A stretch of 32,000 nt of DNA from Limnohabitans parvus II-B4. GTDB taxonomy: Bacteria > Pseudomonadota > Gammaproteobacteria > Burkholderiales > Burkholderiaceae_C. This document shows positions 1,939 through 26,572 of this stretch, piece after piece (the first letter of the stretch is position 1; the number at the start of each line of letters is the position of its first letter). The notes beneath the pieces were generated by a model. That model made no database searches, was not told the DNA's origin, and saw only the letters and a list, made by a program, of their open reading frames with translations. Where the stretch lies: NCBI RefSeq assembly GCF_003063455.1, contig NZ_NESN01000005.1:99506-131505 (forward strand), in the 5' to 3' direction. Made by a program: the position numbers and the translations under genes.

Positions 1939-3159
1939 ATGCTGGATCGCACACTCGCACAAGCCATTCGTCACGTTAGCCAAAACTTTCCTGTCTTGAT
2001 GGTCACAGGACCACGCCAAGTGGGGAAAACCACATTGCTAGAGATGTGCAGCGAAGGCAACAGGTCGTATGTCACGCTGGACGACATGGACATGCGCCGC
2101 CTCGCGCAACAAGACCCCGCCTTGTTTTTGCAGACTTGGCCTGCACCCGTCACTATCGACGAAGTGCAATACGCGCCTCAACTTTTCAGTGCCATCAAAA
2201 TGGCGGTGGACAAGGATCCGCGCAATGGACAGTTTTGGCTCACAGGCTCGCAAAAATTTCAACTCATGCAAGGCTTGACCGAAAGCTTGGCTGGGCGAGT
2301 GGCCATTGTGGATTTGTTGGGGCTGTCGCAGGCCGAGCAACAAGGACGAGCCAAGCAATCACAAGCTTTTATCCCAACCCCCGAATGGATCGCCCAAGCC
2401 CGTGCATTGGCCAAACCCATGACGCTCAAGGCTTTGTACGCACAAATTTGGATGGGCTCTTACCCCCGCTTGCAAACCCAAGGCGAGCAAAGCCGCGATG
2501 TTTTTTACCGATCGTATGTTCAAACCTATGTGCAGCGCGACGTGCGGGAGTTGCTCAAAGTATCAGACCCCTTGAGTTTTCACCGTTTCTTGGGCGTGGT
2601 AGCCGCCAGAACTGGGCAGTTGCTCAATTACGCCAATTTAGCCAATGAGTTGGACATCGACACCAAAACCGCCAAAGCCTGGTTGTCGGTTTTGGAGGCC
2701 TCCGGCCTTGTGTATTTGTTGCAGCCTTACCATCGCAACCTGACCAAACGCATGCTCAAGTCACCCAAGTTGTATTTTTTAGACACAGGTCTGGCCGCTT
2801 ACCTGACCAAATGGAGCACACCCGAAGCGCTGGAGGCGGGCAGCATGTCGGGCGCCATCCTAGAGACTTGGGCCGTGGCTGAAATCCTCAAAAGCTACTG
2901 GCACAACGGCAAAGAAGCGCCTCTGTACTTTTACCGTGACACCGATCAAAAAGAAATTGATCTGCTCATCGAATCGGACGATGTGATTTACCCGATCGAG
3001 ATCAAGAAAACCGGGACACCCTCCACGCAAGCCAGCAAGGCGTTTGCAGCCGCAGCCCATTTGGGCAAGACCGTGGGCCCGGGCGCTGTACTTTGTCTGA
3101 CGCCGCGCGACGTGCCTTTGTCGGACAGCGTCACGGCCATTCCCATGGGATATCTGTAA
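1939..3159 (+). CDS. AAA-family ATP-binding protein (AAA_14 plus DUF4143-type architecture)
   Basis: 406-aa ORF with Walker A GPRQVGKTTL near the N-terminus. Length and C-terminal region fit the DUF4143 ATPase family. Confidence 0.8.
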   Translation: MLDRTLAQAIRHVSQNFPVLMVTGPRQVGKTTLLEMCSEGNRSYVTLDDMDMRRLAQQDPALFLQTWPAPVTIDEVQYAPQLFSAIKMAVDKDPRNGQFWLTGSQKFQLMQGLTESLAGRVAIVDLLGLSQAEQQGRAKQSQAFIPTPEWIAQARALAKPMTLKALYAQIWMGSYPRLQTQGEQSRDVFYRSYVQTYVQRDVRELLKVSDPLSFHRFLGVVAARTGQLLNYANLANELDIDTKTAKAWLSVLEASGLVYLLQPYHRNLTKRMLKSPKLYFLDTGLAAYLTKWSTPEALEAGSMSGAILETWAVAEILKSYWHNGKEAPLYFYRDTDQKEIDLLIESDDVIYPIEIKKTGTPSTQASKAFAAAAHLGKTVGPGAVLCLTPRDVPLSDSVTAIPMGYL

Positions 3160-3953: not shown

Positions 3954-4156
3954 ATCCGGTGAAAGTGCCTGATTGGGGGTGTTTTGTTGCATCAATGCAA
4001 CGAAAAAGACCTTTATTCTTTGAATCGCTTGGAAAAGGCGGTTTGCTCTGGTGCAATACGCTCAACCTTCCGAAATTGGAGGTTGGCTTAGTGTTTAGAC
4101 AGGTGATGTTCACCCCACGAACCCCAAGCTCTTTTTTAAACTTTGGAGAACTCTCA

Positions 4157-5200
4157 ATGAAAAAAACTCTGATTGCTCTGGCTGCTGTTGCTGCCACCGG
4201 CGCTGCTTTCGCACAATCCACCGTGACTTTGTTCGGCGTGGCTGATACTGCCGTTACCTACACAAAAACAGGCGCAGCTAAGAAGACATCCATGACAACC
4301 AGCGGCCTGAACTCCAGCCGCATCGGTTTCCGTGGTGAAGAAGACTTGGGCGGCGGCATGAAAGCTGCCTTCCACATGGAAGCTGGCGTGAACACTGACA
4401 ACGGCACTGGCGCTGGCACAAACACAAACAACCAAGCTGCTGGTCAAATCGCAGGCACTACAACAGTTGGCTCGCAAGGCCTGACTTTCAACCGTCGCAT
4501 GACTGCCAGCTTGATGGGTGGTTTCGGCGAGTTGCGCGTTGGCCGTGACTACACACCTTTGTTCTGGAACCAGACTGTGTTTGATCCGTTCGGCACCAAC
4601 GGTGTTGGCGCATCGCAAGCCAACGCAGCTGCTAACCCAGCCTCTTTGGTTGTTGGCGTGCGTGCTTCCAACAGCATCGGCTACATGTCACCTTCTTTCA
4701 ACGGCTTCCAAGTCCAGTTGCAAACTTTCTTGGGTGAAAACGCATCCAACGACGCCGCTACCGGTAAAAACTCTGGTTCCGGCAATGGCCTGCGCGCCAC
4801 TTACGCTCAGGGTCCTGTGAGCCTTGCTTTGGCAACTGCCAAGTACGACACAGATTTGAACGTCAAACACGAAGGCACCAACTTCGGCGCTTCTTATGAT
4901 CTGGGCGTTGCCAAGATCATGGCTGTTTACTCGCAAGACCAAGACTCCACAAGCGGCGTTGACGCTGCCAAAGTCAAAGGTACTTTGATTGGCTTGACAG
5001 CTCCCCTGGGTGCTGGTGTTGCCAAGGCTGCATGGTCCAACTCCAAGCAAGGCGCTACAGTTGACACTGACAAATTTGCTGTTGGCTATGTTTACAACTT
5101 GAGCAAGCGTACAAGCATTTACACAACATTTGCTAACACCAAGCCAAAAACTGGCGACAAGACTACAGGTTTCGACCTGGGTCTGTCCCACTCCTTCTAA
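4157..5200 (+). CDS. Gram-negative general porin (Omp32/OmpC-like), the only copy with RBS, ATG and a complete signal peptide
   Basis: GGAGAA RBS at 4145-4150, ATG at 4157. Signal peptide MKKTLIALAAVAATGAAFA|QSTV. Conserved GFRGEEDLGGG motif and C-terminal ...GLSHSF (terminal Phe). The track ORF starting at 3959 is an in-frame upstream extension. Confidence 0.95.
   Translation: MKKTLIALAAVAATGAAFAQSTVTLFGVADTAVTYTKTGAAKKTSMTTSGLNSSRIGFRGEEDLGGGMKAAFHMEAGVNTDNGTGAGTNTNNQAAGQIAGTTTVGSQGLTFNRRMTASLMGGFGELRVGRDYTPLFWNQTVFDPFGTNGVGASQANAAANPASLVVGVRASNSIGYMSPSFNGFQVQLQTFLGENASNDAATGKNSGSGNGLRATYAQGPVSLALATAKYDTDLNVKHEGTNFGASYDLGVAKIMAVYSQDQDSTSGVDAAKVKGTLIGLTAPLGAGVAKAAWSNSKQGATVDTDKFAVGYVYNLSKRTSIYTTFANTKPKTGDKTTGFDLGLSHSF
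4173..4236 (+). repeat. Candidate att core copy 1 (attL-like), inside the signal-peptide codons of the expressed porin
   Basis: 64 bp identical to 11184-11247. The first 25 bp are identical to 25304-25328 and the first 12 bp (TTGCTCTGGCTG) to 18473-18484. All copies are in direct orientation. Confidence 0.6.
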
Positions 5201-5206
5201 TTTGAC

Positions 5207-5272
5207 GCTGGCGCAAGCCAGCTGAGAGTTAAAAGCTTAAAACCCCACCGTGGCAACACGGTGGGTTTTTTC
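5207..5272 (+). terminator. Porin terminator module: GNRA-looped hairpin plus rho-independent terminator
   Basis: GCTGGC-GCAA-GCCAGC at 5207-5222. Then CCCACCGTG-GCAA-CACGGTGGG at 5244-5265, followed by TTTTTT. Confidence 0.85.
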
Positions 5273-5389: not shown

Positions 5390-5629
5390 ATGGCTACAGC
5401 AGCAGACTTGGCAGCAAAAAAGAAGGCGGCAGAAGATGCAACAGCGGCATATCAAGCAGCAGTTGATGCAGCACGCGAAGAAGATTTGAAGACTGCAAAG
5501 GCACTTATTGAATTGCACGAATTCAAAGTTGCAGACTTGAAGCCTGAACTGAAATTAACACGTACGCCAGCAAAGAAGGCTGCAACTAAAAAGCCTGCAG
5601 CCAAGAAGTCATCACGCCACAAAAGTTGA
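5390..5629 (+). CDS. Small coiled-coil protein with Lys/Ala/Pro/Thr-rich basic tail (resembles an H-NS N-terminal domain but lacks the canonical DNA-binding domain)
   Basis: GGAG RBS then ATG at 5390. The sequence MATAADLAAKKKAAED...ALIELHEFKVADLKPE...TPAKKAATKKPAAKKSSRHKS has paralogs at the same position in elements B and C. Confidence 0.7.
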   Translation: MATAADLAAKKKAAEDATAAYQAAVDAAREEDLKTAKALIELHEFKVADLKPELKLTRTPAKKAATKKPAAKKSSRHKS

Positions 5630-6590: not shown

Positions 6591-7157
6591 TCAAACCATT
6601 TCCACAGCGTTGCGCTTCATGTCGTCGTTGACGTCGATGTATTTTTGGGTCACAGCAATGCTGCGGTGTCCCGCTAACTCAGCCAACACCCGCACGCCAA
6701 TGCCACGTGATGCCAGCAAAGTTATGAATGATCTCCTCATCGAATGTGAGCTGGCTCCAGCAATGCCCGCACGCTTGAACAAGTAGTGAAAGTGCTGCGC
6801 CATCACGTTGGCGCTGAAGCGCTTGCGCCCCGCAGTGATGAACAGGGGGTTGGTAGCTGGAACAAGTCCACGCAGGTCCAAGTAGGCTTGCAGTTCATCA
6901 CGAAGCTTCTGCGGCAAGAACACTGTGCGTGGATGACGTCCCTTGGTCTGCGCCGCAGTGAGGCGTATTTCTGCACGCACACTGCCATCTGTGTTGCGCA
7001 CGTCACCCACTGAGAGACTGGCGATTTCTCCTACGCGAACGCCTGACCACAAGCCTGTCAAAAACATCACTCTATTGCGCATGGCGTAGCTGCGCGGTTG
7101 GATGTATTGCAGCACTTGTTCAATTTCTGCAGGGGTCAGTGTTTTGGCTTGGCTCAT
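6591..7157 (-). CDS. Small (about 188 aa) tyrosine recombinase, catalytic domain only, FimB/FimE-like size
   Basis: Catalytic residue contexts: GVRVGEI (Arg), HSMRRSF (His-x-x-Arg), LAGHRSIAVTQKY (His and Tyr). Start chosen at MSQAKTLT by alignment with the B and C paralogs (MAQAK, MAAAK). Confidence 0.85.
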   Translation of the reverse strand: MSQAKTLTPAEIEQVLQYIQPRSYAMRNRVMFLTGLWSGVRVGEIASLSVGDVRNTDGSVRAEIRLTAAQTKGRHPRTVFLPQKLRDELQAYLDLRGLVPATNPLFITAGRKRFSANVMAQHFHYLFKRAGIAGASSHSMRRSFITLLASRGIGVRVLAELAGHRSIAVTQKYIDVNDDMKRNAVEMV

Positions 7158-7474
7158 GGTGTGTTGGGTGTTTTTCAAATCGTTGCAGTCCTTTTAGTGT
7201 GTTTGGTTTGATGTTTTTGGGCGACCAATGCCCCGAAAAAATCACGGGGCAAATTTCCGTAATGATTTCAACCAGGTAAACCTAATCGTGATTTCATTTG
7301 GTGCTGTATTTATGTCGCGCCGCATGCAAGTTGTGCGAACTGCGCTACATCTCGCCAGCGATTGCATAAAACAGCGCTGCAGCGCTTGTGCGGAGTTCCA
7401 GCTACGTGGGGTGCTGGACTGGCGTGATCGCTGCGCACAGCGCTGATTTGAGGTGTGGGCTGCTGTAGTGTGAG

Positions 7475-7509
7475 CACTGCGCCAGCAAGACGGGACTGCT
7501 GGCGCAGTG
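7475..7509. repeat. Perfect 13-bp-stem hairpin (CACTGCGCCAGCA-N9-TGCTGGCGCAGTG)
   Basis: Read directly. Lies in the 430-bp noncoding gap between the small recombinase and the 118-aa ORF. Confidence 0.6.
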
Positions 7510-7612
7510 TCCACACATGCATGCATGCCCCGCAGGGTACACGGGTTACAGGTCGCACGTGAGCACAAGAGAGTCAACACTGCGCTGATGTTCTACATCT
7601 AAACGCACTGAA

Positions 7613-8820: not shown

Positions 8821-9009
8821 ATGCAAATACATGAAGTCGTGATCAAGCCCAAAACGCCAGAGCAGCACCGCATTGATACCCTCAAAGCCACCAAAGACAG
8901 GGCAGCGGATGCTCTGGCTGTAGAACGTCAGCGCCAAAAGATCAGCAAGGCGCAGAAGGCAATGAATGCCGCACAGCAGTCAGCCAGCGTCACGCCCAAC
9001 GTCCCGTAA
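8821..9009 (+). CDS. Small hypothetical protein, 62 aa, M-x-I-x-E-[IV] family; other arm of the divergent switch
   Basis: MQIHEVVIKPKTPEQHRIDTLK... resembles MRINEIINTIKPKPPMTPAQSRLNSLK (element C) and MKISEI... (element B). An ATAAAT hexamer lies 6 nt upstream of the ATG. Confidence 0.5.
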   Translation: MQIHEVVIKPKTPEQHRIDTLKATKDRAADALAVERQRQKISKAQKAMNAAQQSASVTPNVP

Positions 9010-9151: not shown

Positions 9152-9595
9152 ATGACAGCCATTTTGAACACACTCAAATTGACCGCAGCACGCAAAACCC
9201 GTGCACTGCCCACAGTGGTCAAGCGTCGCAACAAACTCTTGATCAAACTGGGCGAGCAGCGCATGCTGGCAGATGCACAGGCGCAAGGACTGCATTACAC
9301 CCCCACACGTTACCGCTCATTCAAAGACGCTGACACTGGCGCACGCATCGCCAAACAAGTACCTGTTCGCATCAAGCCATGGTTTTGGATTGGGGAAAAG
9401 GGAGAGTGCTTGCTGGCAATCAACTACGGCAGCAAGCAAATTGAACTGCAAAAAGGAAAAACTGCCATTGACGTGGGTGACGTTGCAAACCTGTGTGCCG
9501 TGCTGGACACAGTGATTGACGCTGTGAAAAACGGTGAACTTGATCCGCAGATTGAGTCAGCCAGCGTGAAACTGCGCGAAGGCTTCAAGAAATAA
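9152..9595 (+). CDS. Conserved 147-aa integrase-associated hypothetical protein
   Basis: AAAGGAAG RBS. Near-identical paralogs at 16428-16871 and 23264-23707. Convergent with the integrase, and its 3' end overlaps the integrase 3' end. Confidence 0.8.
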   Translation: MTAILNTLKLTAARKTRALPTVVKRRNKLLIKLGEQRMLADAQAQGLHYTPTRYRSFKDADTGARIAKQVPVRIKPWFWIGEKGECLLAINYGSKQIELQKGKTAIDVGDVANLCAVLDTVIDAVKNGELDPQIESASVKLREGFKK

Positions 9596-10940
9596 CGGAT
9601 GGGCTGTGCTGACGAGTCCTGCGACTTTGCAGCATGCCAATGTTCTGCTCGCCCGTTACCGTGCTGGCGTAGTGCTGGTTGATCATGTCCACACTGGTGC
9701 GTGCATTGCGTGCCAGTGTCAGCAAGTCAATGCCTTGTCCGTATAGCAAACGGAAGGTGATGCTGGAATGGCGCAGACTGTACAAGCTGCGCTCTTGTCC
9801 GTGCGCACCCAACTTCAACCCAGTGCGTGCCAAAACCCAGTTGAAATAAAACGCCAGCACCCAGTGCGCATAAGCACGATCACGCAAGTACGGCAGGAAC
9901 AGGTAGTTGTCTGGTGCTGCAAGGTTCTGTGCGCTGTAGTGCTGCGTGATCTGTTGATAGATGCGCACTGCAGGCTGCAGCGTGACGATGGGGCGTGAGT
10001 GGCTTTTTGTTTTGGGCAAGTTCAGGCGCAGGTAAGTGTTGTCATTGCGCACCACTTCTACGTGTCTGTGCTTGAGGGTTTTCAAATCGCTTGGGCGTAT
10101 GAAGCTGTTGACCATAAAACCAATGCACCACGCAACATCTGGCGGCATGGTGTACTCAGCTGAGCGCAAACGGTAGTTTTTGCGCAGTGTGCTGTCGCTG
10201 TCAGGGTGTCTGGTGTGCTGCAGCTTGCGAGCAGTGCGCATGATCTGCCAGTATTCAGTGGGTGTAAAAGCGCCGCGACTGTTGGTTTGTACTTTGATCT
10301 TGGGAAACTCTGGCAGCTTGTCCAGCGCATTCACTGCCACAGCCAGTGTCAATATCTTGCGCACAGCAACCAAGTACTGGCTGACGGTGATGGTTGAGAA
10401 ACTCTTGCTCAGGTACTGAGTGAATACCAGCAGTTCAGCGTGATCCACAGCAGCAGGTGATAGTTTGCCCCAGCGCGGCAGTATGTGTGCATCCAGTCTG
10501 TTGCGCAGCACTTTCAAGCTGCCTGCTGAAAACTCACCGCGCTCCACACGAGCTTGTTCGTTTGTGATCATTTGCGCTGCCATTGCAGCAAATGTTTTCT
10601 GGGGTTTGACTGCAGTGGTCGCGAGAGATACGACACCTTGTATTGGCGTTGGTTTAATGCGCAAACTGGCAGACTGCGCCAGCAGTTGCTCGTAAAAGTC
10701 ACGTGCAAAGCTTTGAGCCATGCGCAGGCTTTGCGTCTGTGTGCTGCGTCTGTGTGTGCGTCCTTCAATCCAGCAGCGCACTTGCCAAAACTTGCTGGCA
10801 GCTATTTTGAACACAGATAGTTTGCGGGGATAGCCAGGTACTGGTGTGATGGTCGCAGGAATGGGCACTGTGCGCTCACGTGCTTGAGTGCGTAGCACTG
10901 GGTCGTTGGCTGCAGCTGCGGTAAAAACGGTCAACATCAC
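9585..10940 (-). CDS. Tyrosine-type site-specific integrase (451 aa), element A
   Basis: C-terminal catalytic contexts FIRPSDL (Arg), YSLRHSSITF (Arg-His) and MINQHYAS (Tyr). Paralogs occur in elements B and C. Confidence 0.9.
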   Translation of the reverse strand: MMLTVFTAAAANDPVLRTQARERTVPIPATITPVPGYPRKLSVFKIAASKFWQVRCWIEGRTHRRSTQTQSLRMAQSFARDFYEQLLAQSASLRIKPTPIQGVVSLATTAVKPQKTFAAMAAQMITNEQARVERGEFSAGSLKVLRNRLDAHILPRWGKLSPAAVDHAELLVFTQYLSKSFSTITVSQYLVAVRKILTLAVAVNALDKLPEFPKIKVQTNSRGAFTPTEYWQIMRTARKLQHTRHPDSDSTLRKNYRLRSAEYTMPPDVAWCIGFMVNSFIRPSDLKTLKHRHVEVVRNDNTYLRLNLPKTKSHSRPIVTLQPAVRIYQQITQHYSAQNLAAPDNYLFLPYLRDRAYAHWVLAFYFNWVLARTGLKLGAHGQERSLYSLRHSSITFRLLYGQGIDLLTLARNARTSVDMINQHYASTVTGEQNIGMLQSRRTRQHSPSVIS

Positions 10941-11183
10941 TCAAGCGTACTGTTGTACATCGCAAATGCAACCGCGCACAAAAACGGTTGAAGCGATTAA
11001 CAGGCGTAGTCTTGCCGTGTTGTTGCCGTGCTGCACCGTGTGCATCCACGCTGATAAAAAGACATGCTGCACACTGAACAGTTGTACACCAGCAGGTTTG
11101 CAACAAGCGTCACTTTTAGGTTGGGTGAACCTTGGCGTGCTCTTTTAAACTTTTCGGAATTTTGTGAGGAAAATCAAGCATTG
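10941..11183. promoter_or_regulatory. Conserved arm between integrase start and att core (attP P-arm-like), junction A/B
   Basis: About 243 bp, conserved with 18229-18472 and 25057-25303. Two direct GTTGTACA repeats at 10952-10959 and 11081-11088, exactly 129 bp apart in all three arms. Confidence 0.55.
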
Positions 11184-12295
11184 TTGCTCTGGCTGCTGTT
11201 GCTGCCACCGGCGCTGCTTTCGCACAATCCACCGTGACTTTGTTCGGTGGCGCTGACCTGAACTACCGCTCTGTCACTTCCGGCGCGAACAAGTTCAGCG
11301 GTATGGCTCAAGACGGTATCTACTCCAGCCGTTTTGGCGTGATGGGTACTGAAGATCTGGGCGGCGGCTTGAAGGCTGGCTTCCACTTCGAAGGCGGCAT
11401 GGCTCCTGACGTCGGCACTTCAACTGGCTTCAACTTCACACGCAAGTCCACCATCGGTTTGTCCGGCGGTTTCGGTGAAGTCCGCTTCGGCCGTGACTAC
11501 ACCCCTATGTTTACGGTCGCTGGTATCGCTGATCCATTCGGCACCAACGGTGTGGGTTCTTCCTACAACGTTGCTAACGGTGTGACCTCAGATGGCGTGA
11601 TTGCTGCAGCTGGTTCATTTGCAACAGCTCAAGCTGCTGCTGCCGCAACAACACCTGCCTCCACAGTTGCAGCTGGCGCTGTTTACGCTGATCCAAACGC
11701 TGTTCGCGCTAACAACAGCATTGCTTACTACAGCCCATCTTTCAGTGGTTTCACTGTTAGCGGTATGTACAGCTTCGGTGGCGAGAACACCAACGTGGCC
11801 AAGAAAGCTGGCACTATGTCCAGCATCAAATTGGCTTACGCCAACGGTCCAGTTTCCGTTGCTTTCGGTAACCAAATCACCAAAGGTGGCGTTGCAACAA
11901 CTTCCGCTGCTGACACTGAAAAGTGGACAACCAACTTCTTGGCTGGTGCTTATGACCTGGGCGTTGCTAAGTTGAGCTTGGGTTACAAAACTGACAAGTT
12001 GTCATTTGCTGACGACGCAAGTGTGAAGTCCATGATTTACGGTGTTGCTGCTCCTATGGGTGCTGTGACTTTGAAGGCTTCTTACGTTACTGCTAAGGCT
12101 GACGGCGATAAAATGGCAAACCAGTTCGCCTTGGGTGCAGTGTATGACCTGAGCAAGCGCACTTCTGCCTACGCTACTTACTCAACTCTGAAGAACGAAG
12201 AAGGTTCTGGTAAGAGCGTTGGTTCCGCTGCAGCTAGCGATTTCACTGGCCTGCGTTCCAAAGGCTTCGAAATCGGCGTGAAGCACACTTTCTAA
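11180..12295 (+). CDS. Porin, full-length but start-less and promoter-less copy 2
   Basis: The frame is open from 11168, after an in-frame TGA at 11165-11167. It encodes ..IVALAAVAATGAAFA|QSTVTLFGG..., then GTEDLGGG, and ends GVKHTF. There is no in-frame ATG; the track ORF starts at GTG 11234, inside the mature protein. Confidence 0.8.
   Translation: MVALAAVAATGAAFAQSTVTLFGGADLNYRSVTSGANKFSGMAQDGIYSSRFGVMGTEDLGGGLKAGFHFEGGMAPDVGTSTGFNFTRKSTIGLSGGFGEVRFGRDYTPMFTVAGIADPFGTNGVGSSYNVANGVTSDGVIAAAGSFATAQAAAAATTPASTVAAGAVYADPNAVRANNSIAYYSPSFSGFTVSGMYSFGGENTNVAKKAGTMSSIKLAYANGPVSVAFGNQITKGGVATTSAADTEKWTTNFLAGAYDLGVAKLSLGYKTDKLSFADDASVKSMIYGVAAPMGAVTLKASYVTAKADGDKMANQFALGAVYDLSKRTSAYATYSTLKNEEGSGKSVGSAAASDFTGLRSKGFEIGVKHTF
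11184..11247 (+). repeat. Candidate att core copy 2
   Basis: 64/64 identical to 4173-4236. Divergence is abrupt on both sides. Confidence 0.6.
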
Positions 12296-12301
12296 TTCCC
12301 C

Positions 12302-12364
12302 GCTGGCGCAAGCCAGCTGAGAGTTAAAAGACAAAACCCACCGTGGCAACACGGTGGGTTTTTT
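12302..12364 (+). terminator. Porin terminator module, copy 2
   Basis: GCTGGC-GCAA-GCCAGC at 12302-12317. CCCACCGTG-GCAA-CACGGTGGG at 12337-12358, then TTTTTT. Confidence 0.85.
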
Positions 12365-12485: not shown

Positions 12486-12725
12486 ATGACAGCGACAAAT
12501 GATCCGCAACAGCAACTTGAAGAGATGATTGCTGCGCAGAAACTGCTTGAAGAACAAATCAAACAGCAACGTGAAGTTGCGCGGCAAGCAGCTTTGGAAT
12601 CAATCAAGCGTTTGTATGAGTCACATGCATTCGAATACAAAGATGTAAAAGACTTCATCAAATCAACTCCCGCTCGCAAGACAACGCCACGCAAAACAGC
12701 GACAAGAAAAAAGCGCAGCACATAA
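12486..12725 (+). CDS. Small coiled-coil protein with basic tail, element B paralog
   Basis: GGAGA RBS then ATG at 12486. Sequence MTATNDPQQQLEEMIAAQKLLEEQ...LYESHAFEYKDVKDFI...TPARKTTPRKTATRKKRST. Confidence 0.7.
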   Translation: MTATNDPQQQLEEMIAAQKLLEEQIKQQREVARQAALESIKRLYESHAFEYKDVKDFIKSTPARKTTPRKTATRKKRST

Positions 12726-15311: not shown

Positions 15312-15642
15312 GTGTTGCGTTTGACTCACACTGCTGCAACAAAATATTATTGCGATTCAACTTAGAAAGTTGCATTGCACTTTGCGCTGCGCTGCTAGAC
15401 TTGTTTAAACAAGCTGTGCTGCGTTATTTTTGAAAATGCATACGCGGTATGCTGAGTGAGCCGTTAAGGGTTTGTGCGCTGTTTTGCGCAATCGCAGACC
15501 AAGTGAAATTACACTAATATTTGGTTTTGCAAAAAGGCAATACATTCGTACAAGTTTCAGGTGTGATTGTTTTGGTTGTCCGCGTAGATGTTTGGTTGCA
15601 CACTTGCATTGAATAAATATTTGATAGCAAGGAGTGGCAAAT

Positions 15643-16242
15643 ATGGCGCAAGCAAAGGTACTGACACAAGATGAAGTTGAACGAGTGATGCAATATCTCG
15701 GCAAGAAGCAGCACGCAATGAGAAACCAAGCAATGTTCTTGTTGACGCACGGATGTGGCGTGCGCATCAAAGAGTTGGTCAGCATGCGTATCTGTGATGT
15801 GTTGGAACGCAACGGCGATATCAAGCAAGAAGTCAATCTCAACAGAAACCAAACCAAGGGCGCTCGTGGGCGCACTGTGTATCTGGCTGACAAAATGCGT
15901 GATGTGATTCGCAACTATTTGCGCGAAAAATTTGGTGTGCAGGATTTATTGGCTGTGACCATGTCAAACACAAGTCGCGCACTGTTTGCTACGCAAAAGA
16001 GCGCTGACCGTGGGTTTTCTGCATCAACTGGCTGTCAAATGTTTCACTACTGGTACAAGGACTGTGACATTGTTCATGGCAGCAGTCACAGTGGTCGTCG
16101 TTCATTCATTACGAATTTGGCGAACAAAGGCGTGGCGATTCATGTGTTGAAAGAGTTGGCAGGACACAGATCTATTGTGGTCACCGAAAAGTACATTGCA
16201 AAGAATCCAACGGTGCTGCACGCAAGTGTCAACATGCTGTAA
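15643..16242 (+). CDS. Small (about 199 aa) tyrosine recombinase, element B paralog, on the opposite strand relative to A and C
   Basis: AAGGAG RBS. MAQAKVLTQDEVERVMQYL. Catalytic contexts GVRIKEL (Arg), HSGRRSF, LAGHRSIVVTEKY. Confidence 0.85.
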   Translation: MAQAKVLTQDEVERVMQYLGKKQHAMRNQAMFLLTHGCGVRIKELVSMRICDVLERNGDIKQEVNLNRNQTKGARGRTVYLADKMRDVIRNYLREKFGVQDLLAVTMSNTSRALFATQKSADRGFSASTGCQMFHYWYKDCDIVHGSSHSGRRSFITNLANKGVAIHVLKELAGHRSIVVTEKYIAKNPTVLHASVNML

Positions 16243-16264
16243 AAATACCATCTGCGTTTTTGCT

Positions 16265-16312
16265 GCAAATGTTGGTGCAGTTGTTGGTGCAAATGTTGGT
16301 GCAGTTGTTGGT
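16265..16312. repeat. Tandem repeat, 2 x 24 bp (4 x 12 bp GCA[AG][AT]TGTTGGT)
   Basis: GCAAATGTTGGTGCAGTTGTTGGT occurs twice back to back. An imperfect hairpin GTCATTTAAAG-N5-CTTTAATGAC follows. Confidence 0.8.
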
Positions 16313-16427
16313 GTCATTTAAAGCGACACTTTAATGACCCGCAATACTGAACGGAATTCGGTTGCTCACCCGTGGTGGTTGGGCACAAAATTGTCTGTGC
16401 TTTACAAACATTCGAAAGGAAAAGCAC

Positions 16428-16871
16428 ATGACAGCCATTCTGAACACATTGAAGTTGACTGCAGCCCGCAAGACACGTGCACTGCCTGACGTTGTCAAAC
16501 GCCGCAACAAGCTGCTGATTAAATTGGGCGAGCAGCGCATGTTGGCAGCTGCACAGGCGCAAGGGCAGCACTACACGCCCACACGCTTTCGCTCATTCGC
16601 AGATGCTGACACTGGTGCACGGGTTGTTAAACAAGTGCCTGTTCGCATCAAGCCGTGGTTTTGGACTGGAGAGAAGGGCGAGTGTTTGCTGGCTATCAAC
16701 TATGGCAGCAAGCAAATTGAACTGCAAAAGGGCAAGACTGCCATCGATGTTGGTGCAGTTGAGAACATATGCGCAGTCTTGGACACGGTGATTGATGCTG
16801 TGCGCAATGGTGAACTGGACACGCAGATTGAAAGTGCCAGTGTAAAACTGCGCGATGGATTCAAGAAATAA
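16428..16871 (+). CDS. Conserved 147-aa integrase-associated hypothetical protein, element B
   Basis: AAAGGA RBS then ATG at 16428. MTAILNTLKLTAARKTRALP... is nearly identical to 9152-9595. Confidence 0.8.
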   Translation: MTAILNTLKLTAARKTRALPDVVKRRNKLLIKLGEQRMLAAAQAQGQHYTPTRFRSFADADTGARVVKQVPVRIKPWFWTGEKGECLLAINYGSKQIELQKGKTAIDVGAVENICAVLDTVIDAVRNGELDTQIESASVKLRDGFKK

Positions 16872-18228
16872 CTGTGTGTGATAACTGGCTGTGCTGACGA
16901 GTACGGCGACTTTGCAGCATGCCAATGTTCTGCTCGCCCGTTACGGTGCTGGCGTAGTGCTGGTTGATCATGTCCACACTGGTACGTGCATTGCGTGCCA
17001 GTGTCAGCAAGTCAATGCCTTGTCCGTAGAGCAAGCGAAACGTGATGCTTGAATGGCGTAGGCTGTACAAGCTGCGCTCTTGTCCATGCGCACCCAGCTT
17101 TAATCCAGTGCGTGCCAATACCCAGTTGAAATAAAAGCTCAGCACCCAGTGCGCATAGGCGCGGTCACGCAGGTGCGGTAGAAACAAGTAGTCGTCTGGT
17201 GCAGCAAGGTTCCGTGCGCTGTGGTGTTGGGTCAGCTGCTGGTAAATGCGAACAGCAGGTTGTAGCGTGACGATGGGACGAGTGTGGCTTTTGGTTTTGG
17301 GTAGGTTCAGGCGCAGGTAGGTATTGCCGTTACGCACCACTTCCACGTGTCTGTGCTTGAGTGTTTTGAGGTCGCTTGGGCGTATGAAGCTGTTGACCAT
17401 AAAACCTATGACCCATGCAACATCTGGCGGCATGGTGTACTCAGCTGAGCGCAAGCGATAGCTTTTGCGCAGTGTGCTGTCGCTGTCAGGGTGTCGTGTG
17501 TTTTGCAGCTTGCGAGCAGTGCGCATGATCTGCCAGTACTCTGTGGGCGTGAATGCGCCGCGCGAGTTGGTTTGCACTCGAACTTTGGGAAACTCTGGCA
17601 ACTTGTCCAGCGCATTCACTGCCACAGCCAGTGTCAATATTTTGCGCACTGCAACCAAGTACTGGCTGACGGTGATGGTGGAAAAGCTCTTGCTCAGGTA
17701 CTGCGTGAATGCCAGCAGCTGTGCGTGGTCAATGTCCTCTGGTCGTTGTTTACCCCAGCGCGGCAAGATGTGTGCATCCAGTCTGTTGCGCAGAACTTTC
17801 AAGCTGCCTGAACTAAACTCGCCGCGCTCAACACGGGCATGCTCGTTTGTGAGCATCTGCGCTGCCATTGCAGCAAAGGTCAGCTGTGGTTTGACTGCGG
17901 TGATGTGAGAAACGACACAGGATGTTGATGTTGGTGTTGGCTCAGTGCGCAAACTGGCAGACTGCGCTAGCAATTGTTCATAAAAGTCACGTGCAAAGCT
18001 TTGTGCCATGCGCAGACTTTGCGTTTGTGTGCTGCGTCTGTGTGTACGTCCCGCAATCCAGCAGCGCACTTGCCAAAACTTGCTGGCAGCTATTTTGAAC
18101 ACTGATAGTTTGCGGGGATAACCTGGCACTGGTGTGATGGTTGTAGGAATGGGCACTGTGCGCTCACGTGCTTGAGTGCGCAGAACTGGGTCGTTGGCTG
18201 CGGCTGCGGTAAAAACGGTATGCATCAC
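16861..18228 (-). CDS. Tyrosine-type site-specific integrase (455 aa), element B
   Basis: Highly similar to 9585-10940 along the whole length, with the same catalytic contexts. Confidence 0.9.
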   Translation of the reverse strand: MMHTVFTAAAANDPVLRTQARERTVPIPTTITPVPGYPRKLSVFKIAASKFWQVRCWIAGRTHRRSTQTQSLRMAQSFARDFYEQLLAQSASLRTEPTPTSTSCVVSHITAVKPQLTFAAMAAQMLTNEHARVERGEFSSGSLKVLRNRLDAHILPRWGKQRPEDIDHAQLLAFTQYLSKSFSTITVSQYLVAVRKILTLAVAVNALDKLPEFPKVRVQTNSRGAFTPTEYWQIMRTARKLQNTRHPDSDSTLRKSYRLRSAEYTMPPDVAWVIGFMVNSFIRPSDLKTLKHRHVEVVRNGNTYLRLNLPKTKSHTRPIVTLQPAVRIYQQLTQHHSARNLAAPDDYLFLPHLRDRAYAHWVLSFYFNWVLARTGLKLGAHGQERSLYSLRHSSITFRLLYGQGIDLLTLARNARTSVDMINQHYASTVTGEQNIGMLQSRRTRQHSQLSHTVIS

Positions 18229-18472
18229 TCAAGCGTACTGTTGTACATCGCAAATGCAACCGCGCACAAAAACGGTTGATGCGTTTTACAGGCGCAGTCT
18301 TGCCGTGTCGTTGCCGTGCTGCACCGTTCGCATCCACATTGATAAAAAGACATGCAGCACACTTGCAAGTTGTACGCCAGCAGGTGTGCAACAAGCGTCA
18401 CTTTTAGGTTGGAAAAACCTTGGCGTGCTCTTGCGAACTTTTCGGATGCTCTAAGGAAAAATTAAGCTTTTG
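18229..18472. promoter_or_regulatory. Conserved arm, junction B/C
   Basis: GTTGTACA at 18240-18247 and GTTGTACG at 18369-18376, 129 bp apart. Conserved TGCAACAAG follows. Confidence 0.55.
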
Positions 18473-19581
18473 TTGCTCTGGCTGTTTTGACAGCTTCTGG
18501 CATTTCTTTCGCTCAATCTTCCGTGAGCATTTACGGTCGCCTTGATGTTGGCATGAACAACCAAAAGACAACTGGTACCACCACTATTGGTAGTGCTTCA
18601 ACTTCTACCTTTTACAAAGGCAACAACCTTGTGAATGAAGACGGTCTGTCGACAGGTCTCCTGGGCTTCAAGGGCACTGAAGACTTGGGCGGTGGCTTGA
18701 AGGCCAACTTCGTCCACGAAATGGACTTGGACTTGGACGTTGGCGCACTGGGCGTTGCCGCTGGTCGTGATTCAACTCTGGGCTTGTCTGGTGGTTTCGG
18801 CGAAATTCGCTTGGGCCGTTCATACACGCCTTTGTACTCCACCATTGGTGCCTCAGACGTTTTTGGCACAACAGGTGCTGGCACGGTCAACCAGTTCGGT
18901 ATGGCAGCTAATGCAGTTCGTGCTTCCAATGCATTCTTCTATGCATCACCTTCATTCAGCGGTTTGACCGTTCGCTTGATGGCCCAGCAAAACAATGCAC
19001 AAACAAACGCATCTGTTGGCGGAGCTGGTAAAACATCTGGCAACGGTTTTTCTGTGACCTACGCAGCAGGTCCTTTGATGTTGGCAGCAGCTACAGGCAC
19101 TGAAAAAGGTTCTTCTATTGACCGCGCTGGAGCCTTGTTCGCAGCAACTGCTGCAGCTGCAACTACAGCAGGAACAGCAACAGCAAACGCTAATGCCAAG
19201 TACACAGGTTCTGCCATTTCTGGTCAGTACGACATGGGTGTTGCCAAGTTCTTTGTTGGTTACACAACCACCAAGGATGACAACGACACGTCCGTTGCTG
19301 GCGGCGAGTTGACTATGAAAGAAACCAACTTTGGTGTTGCCGTACCAATGGGTGCATTGACATTGATGGCTGCTGTTGGCAACAACAAAGGTTCTATGGC
19401 AGGTGAACCAGTCACTGCCAAAGGTACTGACATGGCTGTTGGTGCAACCTATGCTTTGAGCAAGCGCACCACTGCTTACTTCAAGACTGGTACTTACAAC
19501 AAGTACAAAGCTTCTGATGTTGGTGGTTCTGAAGAAGTTAAGACAACCCGTACCAGCGTTGGCCTGCGTCACCTTTTCTAA
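18466..19581 (+). CDS. Porin, full-length but start-less and promoter-less copy 3 (most divergent)
   Basis: The frame is open from 18466, after an in-frame TAA at 18463-18465. It encodes AFVALAVLTASGISFA|QSSVSIYG..., then GTEDLGGG, and ends GLRHLF. The only candidate starts (TTG 18487, CTG) would give a signal peptide with no charged N-region. Confidence 0.8.
   Translation, partial: AFVALAVLTASGISFAQSSVSIYGRLDVGMNNQKTTGTTTIGSASTSTFYKGNNLVNEDGLSTGLLGFKGTEDLGGGLKANFVHEMDLDLDVGALGVAAGRDSTLGLSGGFGEIRLGRSYTPLYSTIGASDVFGTTGAGTVNQFGMAANAVRASNAFFYASPSFSGLTVRLMAQQNNAQTNASVGGAGKTSGNGFSVTYAAGPLMLAAATGTEKGSSIDRAGALFAATAAAATTAGTATANANAKYTGSAISGQYDMGVAKFFVGYTTTKDDNDTSVAGGELTMKETNFGVAVPMGALTLMAAVGNNKGSMAGEPVTAKGTDMAVGATYALSKRTTAYFKTGTYNKYKASDVGGSEEVKTTRTSVGLRHLF
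18473..18484 (+). repeat. Candidate att core copy 3 (12-bp TTGCTCTGGCTG)
   Basis: This 12-mer is the only stretch shared perfectly by all four porin 5' ends. Confidence 0.5.
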
Positions 19582-19587
19582 TCCCCT

Positions 19588-19656
19588 GCTGTCGTAAGAC
19601 AGCTTGAGATTTCGAAGAAATAAAAAACCCACCGTGGCAACACGGTGGGTTTTTTT
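19588..19656 (+). terminator. Porin terminator module, copy 3
   Basis: GCTGTC-GTAA-GACAGC at 19588-19603, with a compensatory G:C to T:A change relative to the other copies. CCCACCGTG-GCAA-CACGGTGGG at 19628-19649, then TTTTTTT. Confidence 0.85.
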
Positions 19657-19774: not shown

Positions 19775-20059
19775 ATGTCGGCAGAAAAACTTGATCCACG
19801 TGCAGCATTGGCAAAGATGGAAGCGGACGAAAAGTTGGCACGTGATGCTGCAGAAAATTTAAAAGTAGAAAATCAAAAGAAACGGAAAGAGTTGTTGGCG
19901 AGTTTGAAAGAAGCGGACTTGGCTGATGTGCGTGAGAAATGTAAATTGCACGGATTCAACGCAACAGACCTGCGCGGCTATTTGAAAGTAAAGGGGGCTA
20001 AAACTGCAACGCCTCGAAAAAGTACAGCAAAGAAAACCACAACTAAAAAAGCTTCATAA
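19775..20059 (+). CDS. Small coiled-coil protein with basic tail, element C paralog
   Basis: GGAG RBS then ATG at 19775. Sequence MSAEKLDPRAALAKMEADEKLARD...KCKLHGFNATDLRGYL...TPRKSTAKKTTTKKAS. Confidence 0.7.
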   Translation: MSAEKLDPRAALAKMEADEKLARDAAENLKVENQKKRKELLASLKEADLADVREKCKLHGFNATDLRGYLKVKGAKTATPRKSTAKKTTTKKAS

Positions 20060-20102: not shown

Positions 20103-20990
20103 GTGCGTAGTGTGGTTGCGAGAATATTGGAACTTGAATACATCAACTACAGCATTCCACAACGCTTTGACACAGCAACTGACACGGTAGAAGACAGCAA
20201 CGGGCTTCGTGTGTGGATTGATTTTGAAGCAGAGCAACGTGCTGCAGACAGCGAAGTAGCAGATGAAGTAGCCGCTGCTGCGCTGACATGGCAGTTCAAG
20301 GATGAACTAACTGCTGATGAGTACAACAGGCTCGCGCTGCTGAACAAACTGCTGACGCAGCAACTGAACGGCAAGACTGTAGGCAAAGCTACGATTGAAC
20401 GAGCACTGATGGGAGGTGAGTTTGCTGACTACGAACACAGTTTGACGCAGCCAATTACATCAGCAGAGTTGCTCTACGCTGAAGGCGTGCCTGATGTGCT
20501 CAAACGCTACAACATCAAGTTGCGTGAAGCAGACTTCCAGTACAACAAGTACGAGCGGCTGGCAGACTTGAAAAGTGTTGGACGTGCGAATTACAAACGC
20601 GACACACTATCTAAAACGTACAACAAGTCAGAACACTTGTATGAACTCGCACTGGAATACTTGCAGGAGCAGATTGAGCTGTCGCAGCAAAATGGAGAAG
20701 GTGACAGGTTGACGCGATGGCTTGACCGTGACGTTGACTTTACTACGGCAGGAAATCTTGGTATTGATGTTGACGGAGTGCCGCGAGTTAAAGGCAGCAC
20801 CAGTCACTACGCACTTGACGCTGGTTTGCCCAAGCTCAGTGTGCGCTTAAAGCGTGAACAATGTGTGCTGCAGAGCTTGCTGCGTGCCGCAGTAGCGTGT
20901 GCGTATGTGCCAGAAGTTGTTGCAGTGGTGCAGGTGCAGCCAAAGTTGAAGACGCTTGACATGAGCAAGCTACATCCAGAGCGTGATTAA
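20103..20990 (+). CDS. Hypothetical protein, 295 aa (paralog of 5673-6581)
   Basis: Shared sequence blocks with the element A protein. The GTG start at 20103 lies inside the 9-bp-stem hairpin CACTACGCA-N8-TGCGTAGTG (20087-20112). Confidence 0.65.
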   Translation: MRSVVARILELEYINYSIPQRFDTATDTVEDSNGLRVWIDFEAEQRAADSEVADEVAAAALTWQFKDELTADEYNRLALLNKLLTQQLNGKTVGKATIERALMGGEFADYEHSLTQPITSAELLYAEGVPDVLKRYNIKLREADFQYNKYERLADLKSVGRANYKRDTLSKTYNKSEHLYELALEYLQEQIELSQQNGEGDRLTRWLDRDVDFTTAGNLGIDVDGVPRVKGSTSHYALDAGLPKLSVRLKREQCVLQSLLRAAVACAYVPEVVAVVQVQPKLKTLDMSKLHPERD

Positions 20991-21559
20991 ACCAACTCAA
21001 CAGCACGGCGTTTGACGTCATCGTTGACTGAAACATAACGCTGCGTTGTTGTGATGCTCTTATGCCCCGCCAGTGCAGCAAGTACGAACACTGACACGCC
21101 TTTGCCAGCCAATGAAGTCAGGAAAAATTTGCGACCACTGTGTGAACTTGCACCTTTGATGCCTGCATTCCTGTACATCCAGTAAAAATACTGTGTCAAT
21201 GTGTTGGCACTGAATGGACGGCGTGGACCGCGATGTGTTGTGAACAAGGGCTGCTCAATGTCAATCCATTTGCGTGAGTGAATATACGCAGCAAGTTCAG
21301 TGCACAGCAGGTTGTTTAAGAACACAGTGCGAGCGTGTCCGTGTTTGACGCGATGTGCTGCCAGTAGAACTTCGCTGCGCAGCGTGCCATCGTTGTCCAG
21401 CACATCGCTCAGTTTCAAATCAGCAACTTCGCTCACACGCATGCCTGCGTTGGTTGTGAGTAAGAACATCATGCGATTGCGTACTGCGTTGGCGTTGACT
21501 GCGATGTACGCAAGTGCTCGTTCAATTTCTGCATGTGTCAATGATTTTGCTGCTGCCAT
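20987..21559 (-). CDS. Small (about 190 aa) tyrosine recombinase, element C paralog
   Basis: GGAGA RBS then ATG at 21559 (MAAAKSLTHAEIERALAYI). Catalytic contexts GMRVSEV, HSGRKFF, LAGHKSITTTQRY. The longer track ORF (to 21688) is an upstream extension. Confidence 0.85.
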   Translation of the reverse strand: MAAAKSLTHAEIERALAYIAVNANAVRNRMMFLLTTNAGMRVSEVADLKLSDVLDNDGTLRSEVLLAAHRVKHGHARTVFLNNLLCTELAAYIHSRKWIDIEQPLFTTHRGPRRPFSANTLTQYFYWMYRNAGIKGASSHSGRKFFLTSLAGKGVSVFVLAALAGHKSITTTQRYVSVNDDVKRRAVELV

Positions 21560-22024
21560 GTTGTTCTCCAAATAATGTTGCTGATTTAAGTATGTTGTCT
21601 TTGGTGCTGGTTGGACAAGAAAAACCTGATGTATTGGCGGTGTATTGGTGATCTGTTGAATAACAAGCGGTTGTTGTGCCGTCCACACAGTTCATGCATT
21701 CTCTTATCTCGTGTATTTATTCATCGCACTGTGCAGTTGAGCAGCGTTTGACGTGCAAGCAGGTGCAGACTGCGTAAAACGCCCTACAGCGCACTGACAG
21801 CAGCGCCAGCATCGCAACGGGCAAGGCGCACCAAACGAACGCTTGTGCGTTGGATTTGACGTGCTGCTGCGTGTTGCTGCCCAAATCTCATCTGCTGCCA
21901 CAAAAAATCTGCTGCGTAATTTCTGCGTGGTTGCGAGATCTCGATTGTTGGTGATTTGCTCTAACACTGGTGTTGAACAAGAGTGTGGTCATACTTTCGT
22001 ATGACCTGTGTTGTTCTGTGCTGT

Positions 22025-23263: not shown

Positions 23264-23707
23264 ATGACAGCGATCATGAGCACATTGAAGTTGACAGCGG
23301 CACGCAAAACACGAGCACTGCCAGATGTTGTGAAACGCAGAAATAAACTGCTGATGAAACTGGGTGAGCAGCGCATGTTGGCAGCTGCACAAGCGCAAGG
23401 CGAGCACTACACACCCACTCGACTGCGTTCGTACAAACATGCAGACACTGGAATACGGATCATGAAAGAAGTGCCTGTTCGCATCAAGCCGTGGTATTGG
23501 ACAGGAGAAAAAGGTGAGATGTTGCTGGCCATCAACTACGGCAGCAAACAAATTGAGTTGCAAAAAGGCAAGACAGCGATTGATGTGGGTGAAGCTGCAA
23601 ATCTGTGCAAAGTGTTGGACACCGTGATTGATGCGGTGCGTAATGGTGAATTAGACACGCAGATTGAAAGTGCCAGCGTCAAGTTGCGTGAAGGCTTTAA
23701 GAAATAA
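23264..23707 (+). CDS. Conserved 147-aa integrase-associated hypothetical protein, element C
   Basis: AAAGGAGA RBS. MTAIMSTLKLTAARKTRALPDVVKRRNKLL.... Confidence 0.8.
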   Translation: MTAIMSTLKLTAARKTRALPDVVKRRNKLLMKLGEQRMLAAAQAQGEHYTPTRLRSYKHADTGIRIMKEVPVRIKPWYWTGEKGEMLLAINYGSKQIELQKGKTAIDVGEAANLCKVLDTVIDAVRNGELDTQIESASVKLREGFKK

Positions 23708-25056: not shown

Positions 25057-25303
25057 TGCTCAAGCGTACTGTTGTACATCGCAAATGCAACCGCACACAG
25101 AAACGCTTGACAGGATTTACGGCTGCAGATTTGCCGTGTCGCTGCCGTGCTGTTCCGTTGCGTGCCGTACAGAAAAACAGTGCAGCTGATGCATGAAAAG
25201 TTGTACACCTGCTGATGTGCAACAAGGGTCAGTTGCAGTGTGGTTGTACCTTGGTGCGCCCTCGATAACCTTTCGGATACTTGATGGAAAAATAAAACAT
25301 TGT
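25057..25303. promoter_or_regulatory. Conserved arm, junction C/porin 4 (attR-like)
   Basis: GTTGTACA at 25071-25078 and 25200-25207, 129 bp apart. Confidence 0.55.
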
Positions 25304-26244: not shown

Positions 26245-26250
26245 TTCCCC

Positions 26251-26315
26251 GCTGGCGCAAGCCAGTTGAGGTTTAAAAGACTAAAAACCCACCGTGGCAA
26301 CACGGTGGGTTTTTT
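26251..26315 (+). terminator. Porin terminator module, copy 4
   Basis: GCTGGC-GCAA-GCCAGT at 26251-26266, where one G:U wobble is valid only on the + strand RNA. CCCACCGTG-GCAA-CACGGTGGG at 26288-26309, then TTTTT. Confidence 0.85.
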
Positions 26316-26338
26316 CTTGCCTGCATGCTGTGCTGCAG

Positions 26339-26572
26339 TCAGCAAAAAAGCTCATCGTCCTGTTGCTGGACGTTCAGTGTGTGAGCCGCATCAAACAGTG
26401 GCTGCCACTGCCCAGCAGCCACAGCCTCTTCCATGCGCTGCTGTTGAACTGAACGCCAGACCATGAGCTCAGTCATGGGCGGAACACTTGGGAATGTGCC
26501 CACAGCTGCATTTTGAGCAAGGTGGTTCGCCCGTACCAGCATTCGTGACACTGCCACCTTCATGCCATTCAC
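26339..26572 (-). CDS. Hypothetical small protein (77 aa), host-side; weak call
   Basis: ORF with host-like GC. I recognise no motif. Its stop codon lies at the edge of the homology shared with the element copies. Confidence 0.25.
   Translation of the reverse strand: MNGMKVAVSRMLVRANHLAQNAAVGTFPSVPPMTELMVWRSVQQQRMEEAVAAGQWQPLFDAAHTLNVQQQDDELFC

Follow-up and report, generated by a model that had tools for sequence, protein, structure and literature searches.

The dusA-specific integrases (DAI) are a family of tyrosine integrases that use, in many genera, one conserved site within a protein-coding gene's 5′ end (Farrugia et al. 2015; PMC4482086). In the e14 element at icd, in islands at tRNA genes and in the phage-inducible chromosomal islands at fis, a crossover core of about 7 bp lies within a longer identity block that extends toward the replaced part of the gene (PMC10111431). 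Here we describe a 32,000-nt stretch of the Limnohabitans parvus II-B4 genome (contig NZ_NESN01000005.1, positions 99,506 to 131,505, forward strand), called the window below, in which the 5′ ends of four porin genes have a 12-nt sequence, TTGCTCTGGCTG, in common. We propose, at a probability of roughly 80%, that this 12-mer is the attachment (att) core, and the crossover site, of small integrative islands inserted serially into the major porin gene.

Among described families, the DAI are the closest, with the polarity reversed. As in the DAI islands, there are direct repeats at both ends, and island sequence keeps the target gene functional (PMC4482086). The DAI islands, however, replace a short 5′ end and supply promoter signals, so that the chromosomal gene body stays in use (PMC4482086). 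In the porin islands, the chromosome would instead keep the promoter and five codons, the rest being replaced by a divergent allele (about 30–37% amino acid identity) and the old body left silent. With the islands of PMC10111431, the porin islands have in common that the core can be located by comparing diverse instances and that islands lie in tandem at one site. They differ in that the replaced part is an entire outer-membrane protein gene of about 1 kb, which is hypervariable rather than conserved. Since the replaced porin is hypervariable, the identity block decays abruptly, after 10–150 nt. A literature search on porin-targeting islands found no description of such a system, which may nonetheless have been described elsewhere. 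The att core itself appears to be ordinary, and the surrounding system appears to be an undescribed, widespread variant of gene-targeting integrative islands.

The repeats are as follows, with the attachment sites that we propose at left (attL) and right (attR):

4173 to 4184, plus strand: core copy 1, putative attL of island 1, where the chromosomal B arm meets the island-1 porin
11184 to 11195, plus strand: core copy 2, putative attR of island 1 and attL of island 2
18473 to 18484, plus strand: core copy 3, putative attR of island 2 and attL of island 3
25304 to 25315, plus strand: core copy 4, putative attR of island 3, followed by the resident-type porin
4173 to 4236, plus strand: extended identity block of island 1, 64 nt, with its twin at 11184 to 11247

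The original prediction took the graded identity among these four ends as the mark of a crossover core, and its account of the repeat was accurate throughout. All 64 bases of the extended block match its twin, and divergence is abrupt on both sides. To the left, base −1 is a in copy 1 and g in copy 2, and identity over the interval −40 to −1 is 45%; to the right, positions +65, +67, +68, +74, +75 and +76 are mismatched, and the porin bodies beyond the block have about 45–49% identity. Copy 4 (from 25304) has 25 nt in common with copy 1, TTGCTCTGGCTGCTGTTGCTGCCAC, and copy 3 (from 18473) has the 12 nt of TTGCTCTGGCTG. Copies 2 and 3 also agree at the TTG left of the 12-mer, which gives 15 nt for that pair. 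The 12-mer forms codons 6–9 (I/V-A-L-A) of the porin signal peptide. It occurs exactly four times in the window, each time at a porin 5′ end; one extra match, with one mismatch, lies at 8909, and 0.39 matches with at most one mismatch are expected in shuffled sequence. Compared pairwise, the porin cassettes are 0.67–1.00 identical over their first 60 nt versus roughly 0.1–0.7 in the body.

The window array consists of three tandem units of 7011, 7289 and 6831 bp and a fourth porin. Each unit runs in the order core, porin, 3′ module, variable cargo, FimB-sized recombinase, DUF6641, an integrase of about 450 amino acids on the minus strand, a 245-bp arm and the next core; islands are about 7 kb long in the window and about 4–10 kb across the family. 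The four porins all belong to the Porin_4 family, have intact reading frames and end in a C-terminal Phe. Their start signals are what tells them apart:

4128 to 4172, plus strand: chromosomal B arm, with a GGAGAA ribosome-binding site, an ATG at 4157 and codons MKKTL(I)
4157 to 5200, plus strand: porin 1, 347 amino acids, Porin_4, the copy in the expressed position
11183 to 12295, plus strand: porin 2, intact start-less frame, with an in-frame TGA at 11165 and its first start codon, GTG at 11234, inside the mature protein
18472 to 19581, plus strand: porin 3, intact and start-less, with an in-frame TAA three codons upstream of the core
25303 to 26244, plus strand: porin 4, putative displaced resident-type copy, with only a TTG without ribosome-binding site

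A ribosome-binding site, an ATG and the MKKTL(I) codons thus precede copy 1 only, and copies 2–4 are preceded by the integrase-side P arm. The last 45 nt or so of the P arms look like a native porin leader in which the ribosome-binding site and ATG have been destroyed. Judged by these signals, the B arm would be the sole expression site of the array, and porins 2–4 would be silent. No match to the sigma-70 consensus was found upstream of porin 1 or porin 2, and for that reason the promoter of porin 1 is one that we infer.

Each P arm, moreover, carries two copies of the motif GTTGTACRYC-N5-8-TGCAAC, at −232 and −103 from the core. The six matches in the window (0.01 expected) all fall in P arms, none being on the porin side, and they are candidate arm-type sites:

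10941 to 11183, plus strand: P arm of island 1, candidate arm-type sites at 10952–10972 and 11081–11104
18229 to 18472, plus strand: P arm of island 2, candidate arm-type sites at 18240–18260 and 18369–18392
25057 to 25303, plus strand: P arm of island 3, candidate arm-type sites at 25071–25091 and 25200–25223

In the protein collection, the homologues of the large integrase number more than 3,000, most of them metagenomic. We retrieved 80 genome loci, from Limnohabitans, Polaromonas, Rhodoferax, Polynucleobacter, Ramlibacter and metagenome-assembled genomes (MAGs) of other Burkholderiales, and 80 metagenome loci. A divergent porin 5′ end lies about 250–450 bp upstream of the integrase in most of the genome loci with enough flank, and the same arrangement of a divergent porin 5′ end upstream of the integrase recurs in the metagenome loci. 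From other genomes and metagenomes, 21 non-redundant complete islands supplied attL/attR junctions (22 units are listed). The left boundary of the attL/attR identity is base 1 of the 12-mer, with a left run of 0 in 18 of the 22 listed units. The right runs of the 21 islands are 10, 11, 11, 11, 12, 12, 12, 19, 19, 25, 31, 31, 31, 40, 46, 47, 50, 50, 64, 76 and at least 150 nt, so that the two ends of seven islands have just 10–12 nt in common. Bases 2–10 of the core are concordant within every one of the 21 pairs, and six variants are found between pairs: TGCTCTGGC, CGCTTTGGC, CGCTCTGGC, TGCTTTGGC, TGCCCTGGC and TGCTATCGC.

A second set of 37 site pairs combines left arms that are 97–100% identical with unrelated porins, and the first mismatch falls at +11 to +15 in 31 of them. 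P arms that are 100% identical are joined to different porins in two groups of loci (L002, L081, L095 and L097; L109, L110 and L111). In L084 and L085, two strains of one species, no base differs as far as the end of the 12-mer; the porin bodies are different, and the two sequences become alike again at the terminator and cargo. Start signals were counted over non-redundant sites. On the promoter (B) side, 27 of 29 sites have an ATG with a ribosome-binding site and two an ATG without one, the other classes being empty. On the integrase-proximal (P) side, the 90 sites comprise two with an ATG and ribosome-binding site, seven with an ATG lacking it, 26 with only GTG or TTG and no ribosome-binding site, and 55 with no in-frame start before a stop.

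Two observations concern the displaced porins themselves. In L153, the frame of the displaced porin at 11386 stops after about 122 codons; no other displaced porin in the complete units is clearly disrupted. In L001 (porins at 3191 and 11609) and L141 (at 350 and 7307; both in the orientation of the window), the porin in the expressed position and the displaced one match from end to end, at 92% and 95% identity, respectively. Either the incoming allele was nearly the one that it displaced or the copies were homogenised.

An unoccupied site bears on the question of which end of the unit was joined to the chromosome. L167 is an island-free relative with the order coq7, promoter, porin, right flank, and L093 has just one island, with 96% identity to island 2. 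Identities to L167, whose flanks are 79–93% identical to the occupied loci and which is therefore not a same-strain comparison, are as follows:

L093 left end (attL): 1.00 at −50 to −1, 0.92 in the core, 0.27 at +13 to +72, 0.37 at +73 to +110
L093 right end (attR): 0.30 at −50 to −1, 1.00 in the core, 0.85 at +13 to +72, 0.29 at +73 to +110
Window copy 1: 1.00 at −50 to −1, 1.00 in the core, 0.40 at +13 to +72, 0.34 at +73 to +110
Window copy 4: 0.30 at −50 to −1, 1.00 in the core, 0.92 at +13 to +72, 0.84 at +73 to +110

Copy 1 of the window departs from L167 after about +14. For L093 and for the window alike, the L167 site equals the B arm of attL followed by the B′ arm of attR, so the triad of attB (the empty chromosomal site), attL and attR can be read directly from the alignment. 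Porin 4 is homologous to the L167 porin from end to end (74.5% amino acid identity), whereas porins 1–3 are about 30% identical to it; in L166, an 89.7% identical allele of porin 4 lies beside coq7 with its native start. Because the attB relation holds, we favor insertion at the 5′ core, with the rightmost porin as the old resident. Four of the features by which an att site is recognized are found here: a direct repeat at both ends, an attB made of the left part of attL and the right part of attR, an overlap conserved between partners and an adjacent integrase gene. The earlier proposition that a short common segment with partner-specific flanks is the core of a tyrosine recombinase is supported by the junctions of the 21 islands, the 37 pairs with a common left arm, the L167 triad and the ends with 10–12 nt in common. 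The 12-mer remains the probable core, and what changes is the extent of the crossover: exchange would be bounded to bases 1–11 in L093 and to about bases 2–10 over all islands.

We propose that the large integrase recombines a site made of P arm, core and porin with the same core in the chromosomal porin gene beside coq7, and that strands would be exchanged inside about bases 2–10/11 of the 12-mer. The resident promoter, ribosome-binding site, ATG and MKKTL would then be fused in frame to the start-less porin of the island, and the resident porin would end up behind the island, next to a P arm and without a usable start. Three serial integrations, whose order we infer, would give four porins with only porin 1 in the expressed position. 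Excision or deletion junctions are expected inside TTGCTCTGGCT.

The alternative that survives best, although we consider it improbable, shifts the phase of the unit. The crossover would lie in the 3′ module, that is, the terminator hairpin and about 45 nt; the leftmost porin would be native, the start-less porins would be internal cargo and the 12-mer would be the mere onset of homology. The modules concerned are:

5201 to 5271, plus strand: 3′ module of porin 1, two GCAA-loop hairpins, the second being the terminator (CCCACCGTGGCAACACGGTGGG followed by T6)
12296 to 12364, 19582 to 19655 and 26245 to 26315: the other 3′ modules

An array of three units (porin, terminator, cargo, integrase, P arm) followed by a porin and terminator fits either phase. 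The terminator stem-loop CCCACCGTGGCAACACGGTGGG is the same in all four window copies, with 28–29 invariant hairpin nucleotides, and the last 120 nt or so of the cassettes, hairpin included, are 0.7–0.9 identical. Islands that are 92.7–96.6% identical to island 2 match it from the terminator (12284) on and not in the porin to the left, and in two of three pairs with the same cargo and different porins, the break is 5–14 nt or less from the hairpin. Against a crossover in the 3′ module, L167 matches attL to the left of the core and attR to the right, and its porin is of the rightmost type, not the leftmost. The junction of P arm and porin, in addition, falls at the same nucleotide (±1) even when two islands have nothing else in common in P arm or porin, and islands with 100% identical P arms carry unrelated integrase-proximal porins. 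Intact start-less frames make sense only if they are joined, now or recently, to an expression site through the core. As to the hairpin, 85 instances of the 3′ module were found in related loci, and the changes in its stem are compensatory in other genomes, as fits a terminator.

Could all the repeats instead be the work of RecA-dependent recombination or gene conversion among porin paralogues, the 12-mer being merely a conserved piece of signal peptide? The DNA that encodes the signal peptide is indeed conserved, as the 0.67–1.0 identity of the first 60 nt attests; the partner-specific identities of 31–150 nt resemble conversion tracts, and porin bodies behave as freely exchanged cassettes with conserved ends. 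Efficient RecA-dependent exchange, however, needs roughly 20–30 bp, and 10–12 nt is too short for it. The islands whose ends have only 10–12 nt in common (7 of 21) therefore require a site-specific reaction. To the left of the core, furthermore, the arms are non-homologous (0.12–0.5 identity in most units), yet the switch falls at one fixed nucleotide in many lineages; copies 3 and 4, both preceded by P arms, are 0.70 identical there. The site is always accompanied by the integrase gene, at conserved spacing and with repeated arm motifs. We regard a purely RecA-dependent origin as very improbable.

If the 12-mer is a site-specific core, which enzyme acts on it? Each window island encodes a putative large tyrosine integrase and a small tyrosine recombinase:

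9585 to 10940, minus strand: large integrase of island 1, about 450 amino acids, PHROG 1 integrase match (E 8e-18), RHSSITFR and HY motifs
16861 to 18228, minus strand: large integrase of island 2, 92% amino acid identity to that of island 1
23713 to 25056, minus strand: large integrase of island 3, 83% amino acid identity to that of island 1
6591 to 7178 (minus), 15634 to 16242 (plus) and 20987 to 21688 (minus): small tyrosine recombinases, 195–233 amino acids, catalytic domain only

The three large integrases are 83–92% identical, and their start lies about 245 bp from the 12-mer in all three window islands, with a similarly short distance in most related loci. The PHROG 1 match covers residues 41–411, the alignment has the invariant residues R282, R390-H391, R397 and H423-Y424, and the Pfam models Phage_int_M and SAM_5 give sub-threshold matches. 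The small enzyme has a clear PF00589 domain (E about 1e-26) and matches PRK09870, a tyrosine-type DNA invertase model, over its full length (E 6e-11), and we liken it to the FimB/FimE-type DNA invertases. The large integrase and DUF6641 form the universal core of the islands. The smallest complete unit, in L151 (4606–8574 in the orientation of the window, 3.97 kb), contains no genes besides those for a porin, DUF6641 and the large integrase, and this content suggests a minimal mobile module. Since L151 carries no other recombinase, the large integrase is the likely catalyst rather than the small FimB-sized one, although the related loci were gathered through the large integrase and the comparison is biased toward it. 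That a genuine core is served by the small enzyme, alone or together with the large one, seems highly unlikely to us: it is encoded by all three window islands and 20 of the 22 listed units and resembles an invertase over its full length, but its gene is absent from L151 and L163, both with normal ends, and varies in position and orientation, whereas the large integrase is fixed in distance and orientation relative to the core. The original prediction of a tyrosine-recombinase core is supported, save that the small recombinases are unlikely to drive it.

Distant integrases (45–49% identity) in L051, L056, L060 and L064, from Ramlibacter and related MAGs, are arranged differently. There, the integrase is convergent with, and directly downstream of, a porin with a native start; no porin lies upstream of it, and a second, divergent porin is about 1.8 kb away.

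Several points weigh against insertion at the 5′ core by the large integrase. The array alone is ambiguous about phase, and the choice rests mainly on one empty-site relative with flanks that are 79–93% identical. A search for terminal overlaps found no circular contigs among 167 loci. When the B and P arms were aligned and inspected, no inverted core-type sites forming a convincing dyad were seen around the 12-mer; the arms do have a stretch AAAC-W-Y-TG-N in common to the left of the core. The large integrase misses Pfam PF00589 at threshold, this model being sub-threshold in its homologues as well, and neither the integrase nor its profile retrieved a relative when PDB sequences were searched. 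An AlphaFold2 model from a 12-sequence alignment was unusable, with a mean confidence (pLDDT) of 41. Finally, the porin bodies show no linkage to either neighbour, be it the island interior to the right or the P arm to the left, even where the interiors are 96.6% identical (island 2 and L093).

This last point has two consequences. Because porins do not travel with the island interior, the phase of the crossover had to be chosen from the empty-site comparison. For the same reason, another process of exchange would have to act on the conserved 3′ module. It is probably homologous recombination, which would shuffle porins between islands and hosts, and the 3′ module would then be the right-hand limit of a swappable porin cassette. 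Just beyond the fourth module, at 26316–26349, the 35–45 nt after the terminator resemble the sequence that follows the terminators in the islands and are lacking in L167; this stretch may be a scar of an earlier arrival of porin 4 on an island.

What, then, is the origin of the 64-nt block? As part of the original prediction, it was suggested that copies 1 and 2 had recently undergone exchange or gene conversion, which is plausible. In the related loci, the identity run between partner sites has a median of 31 nt, and 52% (11 of 21) reach at least 31 nt; between non-partners with the same core, the median is 12 nt and 1% reach at least 31 nt (Mann–Whitney p = 5e-5). Since runs are longer in partners, the graded identity is genuine, is peculiar to the two ends of a single island, and is not simply signal-peptide conservation. 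The extended blocks have the core as their fixed end and continue solely into the homologous porin side, and their abrupt ends suggest recombination breakpoints. On sequence grounds, the 64-nt match is the island-1 case of such a partner-specific block. Identity blocks longer than the core of about 7 bp are known where an island brings replacement gene sequence (PMC10111431). Candidate origins are gene conversion between tandem copies, migration of the Holliday junction into the homologous side, and an earlier homologous excision that captured host 5′ sequence. The data on the blocks fit gene conversion and pre-existing identity between attP (the island site) and attB alike.

A number of other systems offer functional analogies. 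In the vsa/HvsR system of Mycoplasma pulmonis and the SusC/SusD shufflons of Bacteroides fragilis, one promoter and 5′ leader serve a set of surface-protein genes that lack starts; recombination takes place where the leader or signal peptide is encoded, and a dedicated invertase inverts DNA among resident silent genes. The porin islands differ in having direct repeats, silent genes separated by integrase-bearing islands and alleles that would arrive horizontally. Integrons, like the porin array, have a fixed promoter and promoterless cassettes inserted by a tyrosine recombinase, the first of which is expressed. In the porin array, however, each unit has its own integrase and cargo, and the fusion is in frame, inside a coding sequence. 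An integron proper was rejected: an integrase is present in every unit, the 3′ hairpins are GNRA-loop terminators with a U-run, and no attC-type folded site is evident; the best match of the small recombinase to an integron integrase was far below the cut-off. The phage porins Lc of PA-2 and NmpC alter the host porin by lysogenic conversion; their genes are complete, have promoters of their own and do not lie at the attachment site. An island porin would physically replace the host gene, which phage porins do not. We view the vsa, SusC/SusD and integron systems as analogies of function, not as relatives.

It is tempting to go further, if only tentatively, and to see in the locus a horizontally fed porin-switching system, with one expression site (promoter and MKKTL) and an array of silent, intact porin cassettes. 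If so, the porin on display would change within ecological time through integrase-mediated excision, through loss of the DNA between any two cores or through re-integration, and islands would be able to swap porins with their hosts by pairing an integrase crossover at the 5′ core with homologous exchange at the 3′ terminator module. Porins serve as major receptors for phages and as gates for nutrients, and Limnohabitans, Polaromonas, Rhodoferax and their relatives are dominant in freshwater. The islands would then be dedicated shuttles of receptor diversity across freshwater Burkholderiales, probably serving evasion of phages or grazers, and the family is an abundant one, given the more than 3,000 homologues of its integrase in public data. 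Porin alleles at the locus are about 30% identical between strains whose islands are 96% identical; in-frame installation of a porin, with the old copy kept as a silent spare, would be a direct mobile source of this extreme diversity. The analysis also offers a minimal att core of at most 10–11 bp, with natural variants, for an uncharacterised clade of integrases, and a natural design for in-frame promoter capture that could serve engineering.

The DUF6641 genes are placed as follows:

9152 to 9595, plus strand: DUF6641 gene of island 1, convergent with the integrase and overlapping its 3′ end
16362 to 16871 and 23264 to 23707: DUF6641 genes of islands 2 and 3

PADLOC and PHROGs gave nothing usable on the function of the cargo. 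We rejected a prophage or phage satellite, as the only functional PHROG matches are integrases, with no virion, packaging or replication genes, and a search of IMG/VR contigs with the integrase profile found no relatives. A tRNA-linked integration site was likewise rejected, the window being without tRNA genes. An exact-protein look-up of the window coq7 and right-flank proteins gave no match.

Some minor features of the window may be recorded. In the left chromosomal flank, an AAA_14/DUF4143 ATPase gene (1939–3159, plus strand) matches the PADLOC candidate defence family PDC-S01 (E 2e-118). The first gene after the porin terminators (5390–5629, 12486–12725 and 19775–20059) encodes a lysine/alanine-rich protein of about 80–95 amino acids without a family match, and is preceded by a conserved leader (GTGTTGTTGCTGATAAATT...GGAG). 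In island 1, a near-perfect inverted repeat of 20 nt with a 9-nt spacer (GTGTGAGCACTGCGCCAGCA / TGCTGGCGCAGTGTCCACAC) lies at 7468–7516, between the small recombinase and DUF6876 genes; it was considered as a second recombination site related to the post-terminator segment and rejected, being found in island 1 only. In island 2, three to four tandem 12-nt units resembling GCAAATGTTGGT occupy 16256–16303, just 3′ of the small recombinase gene.

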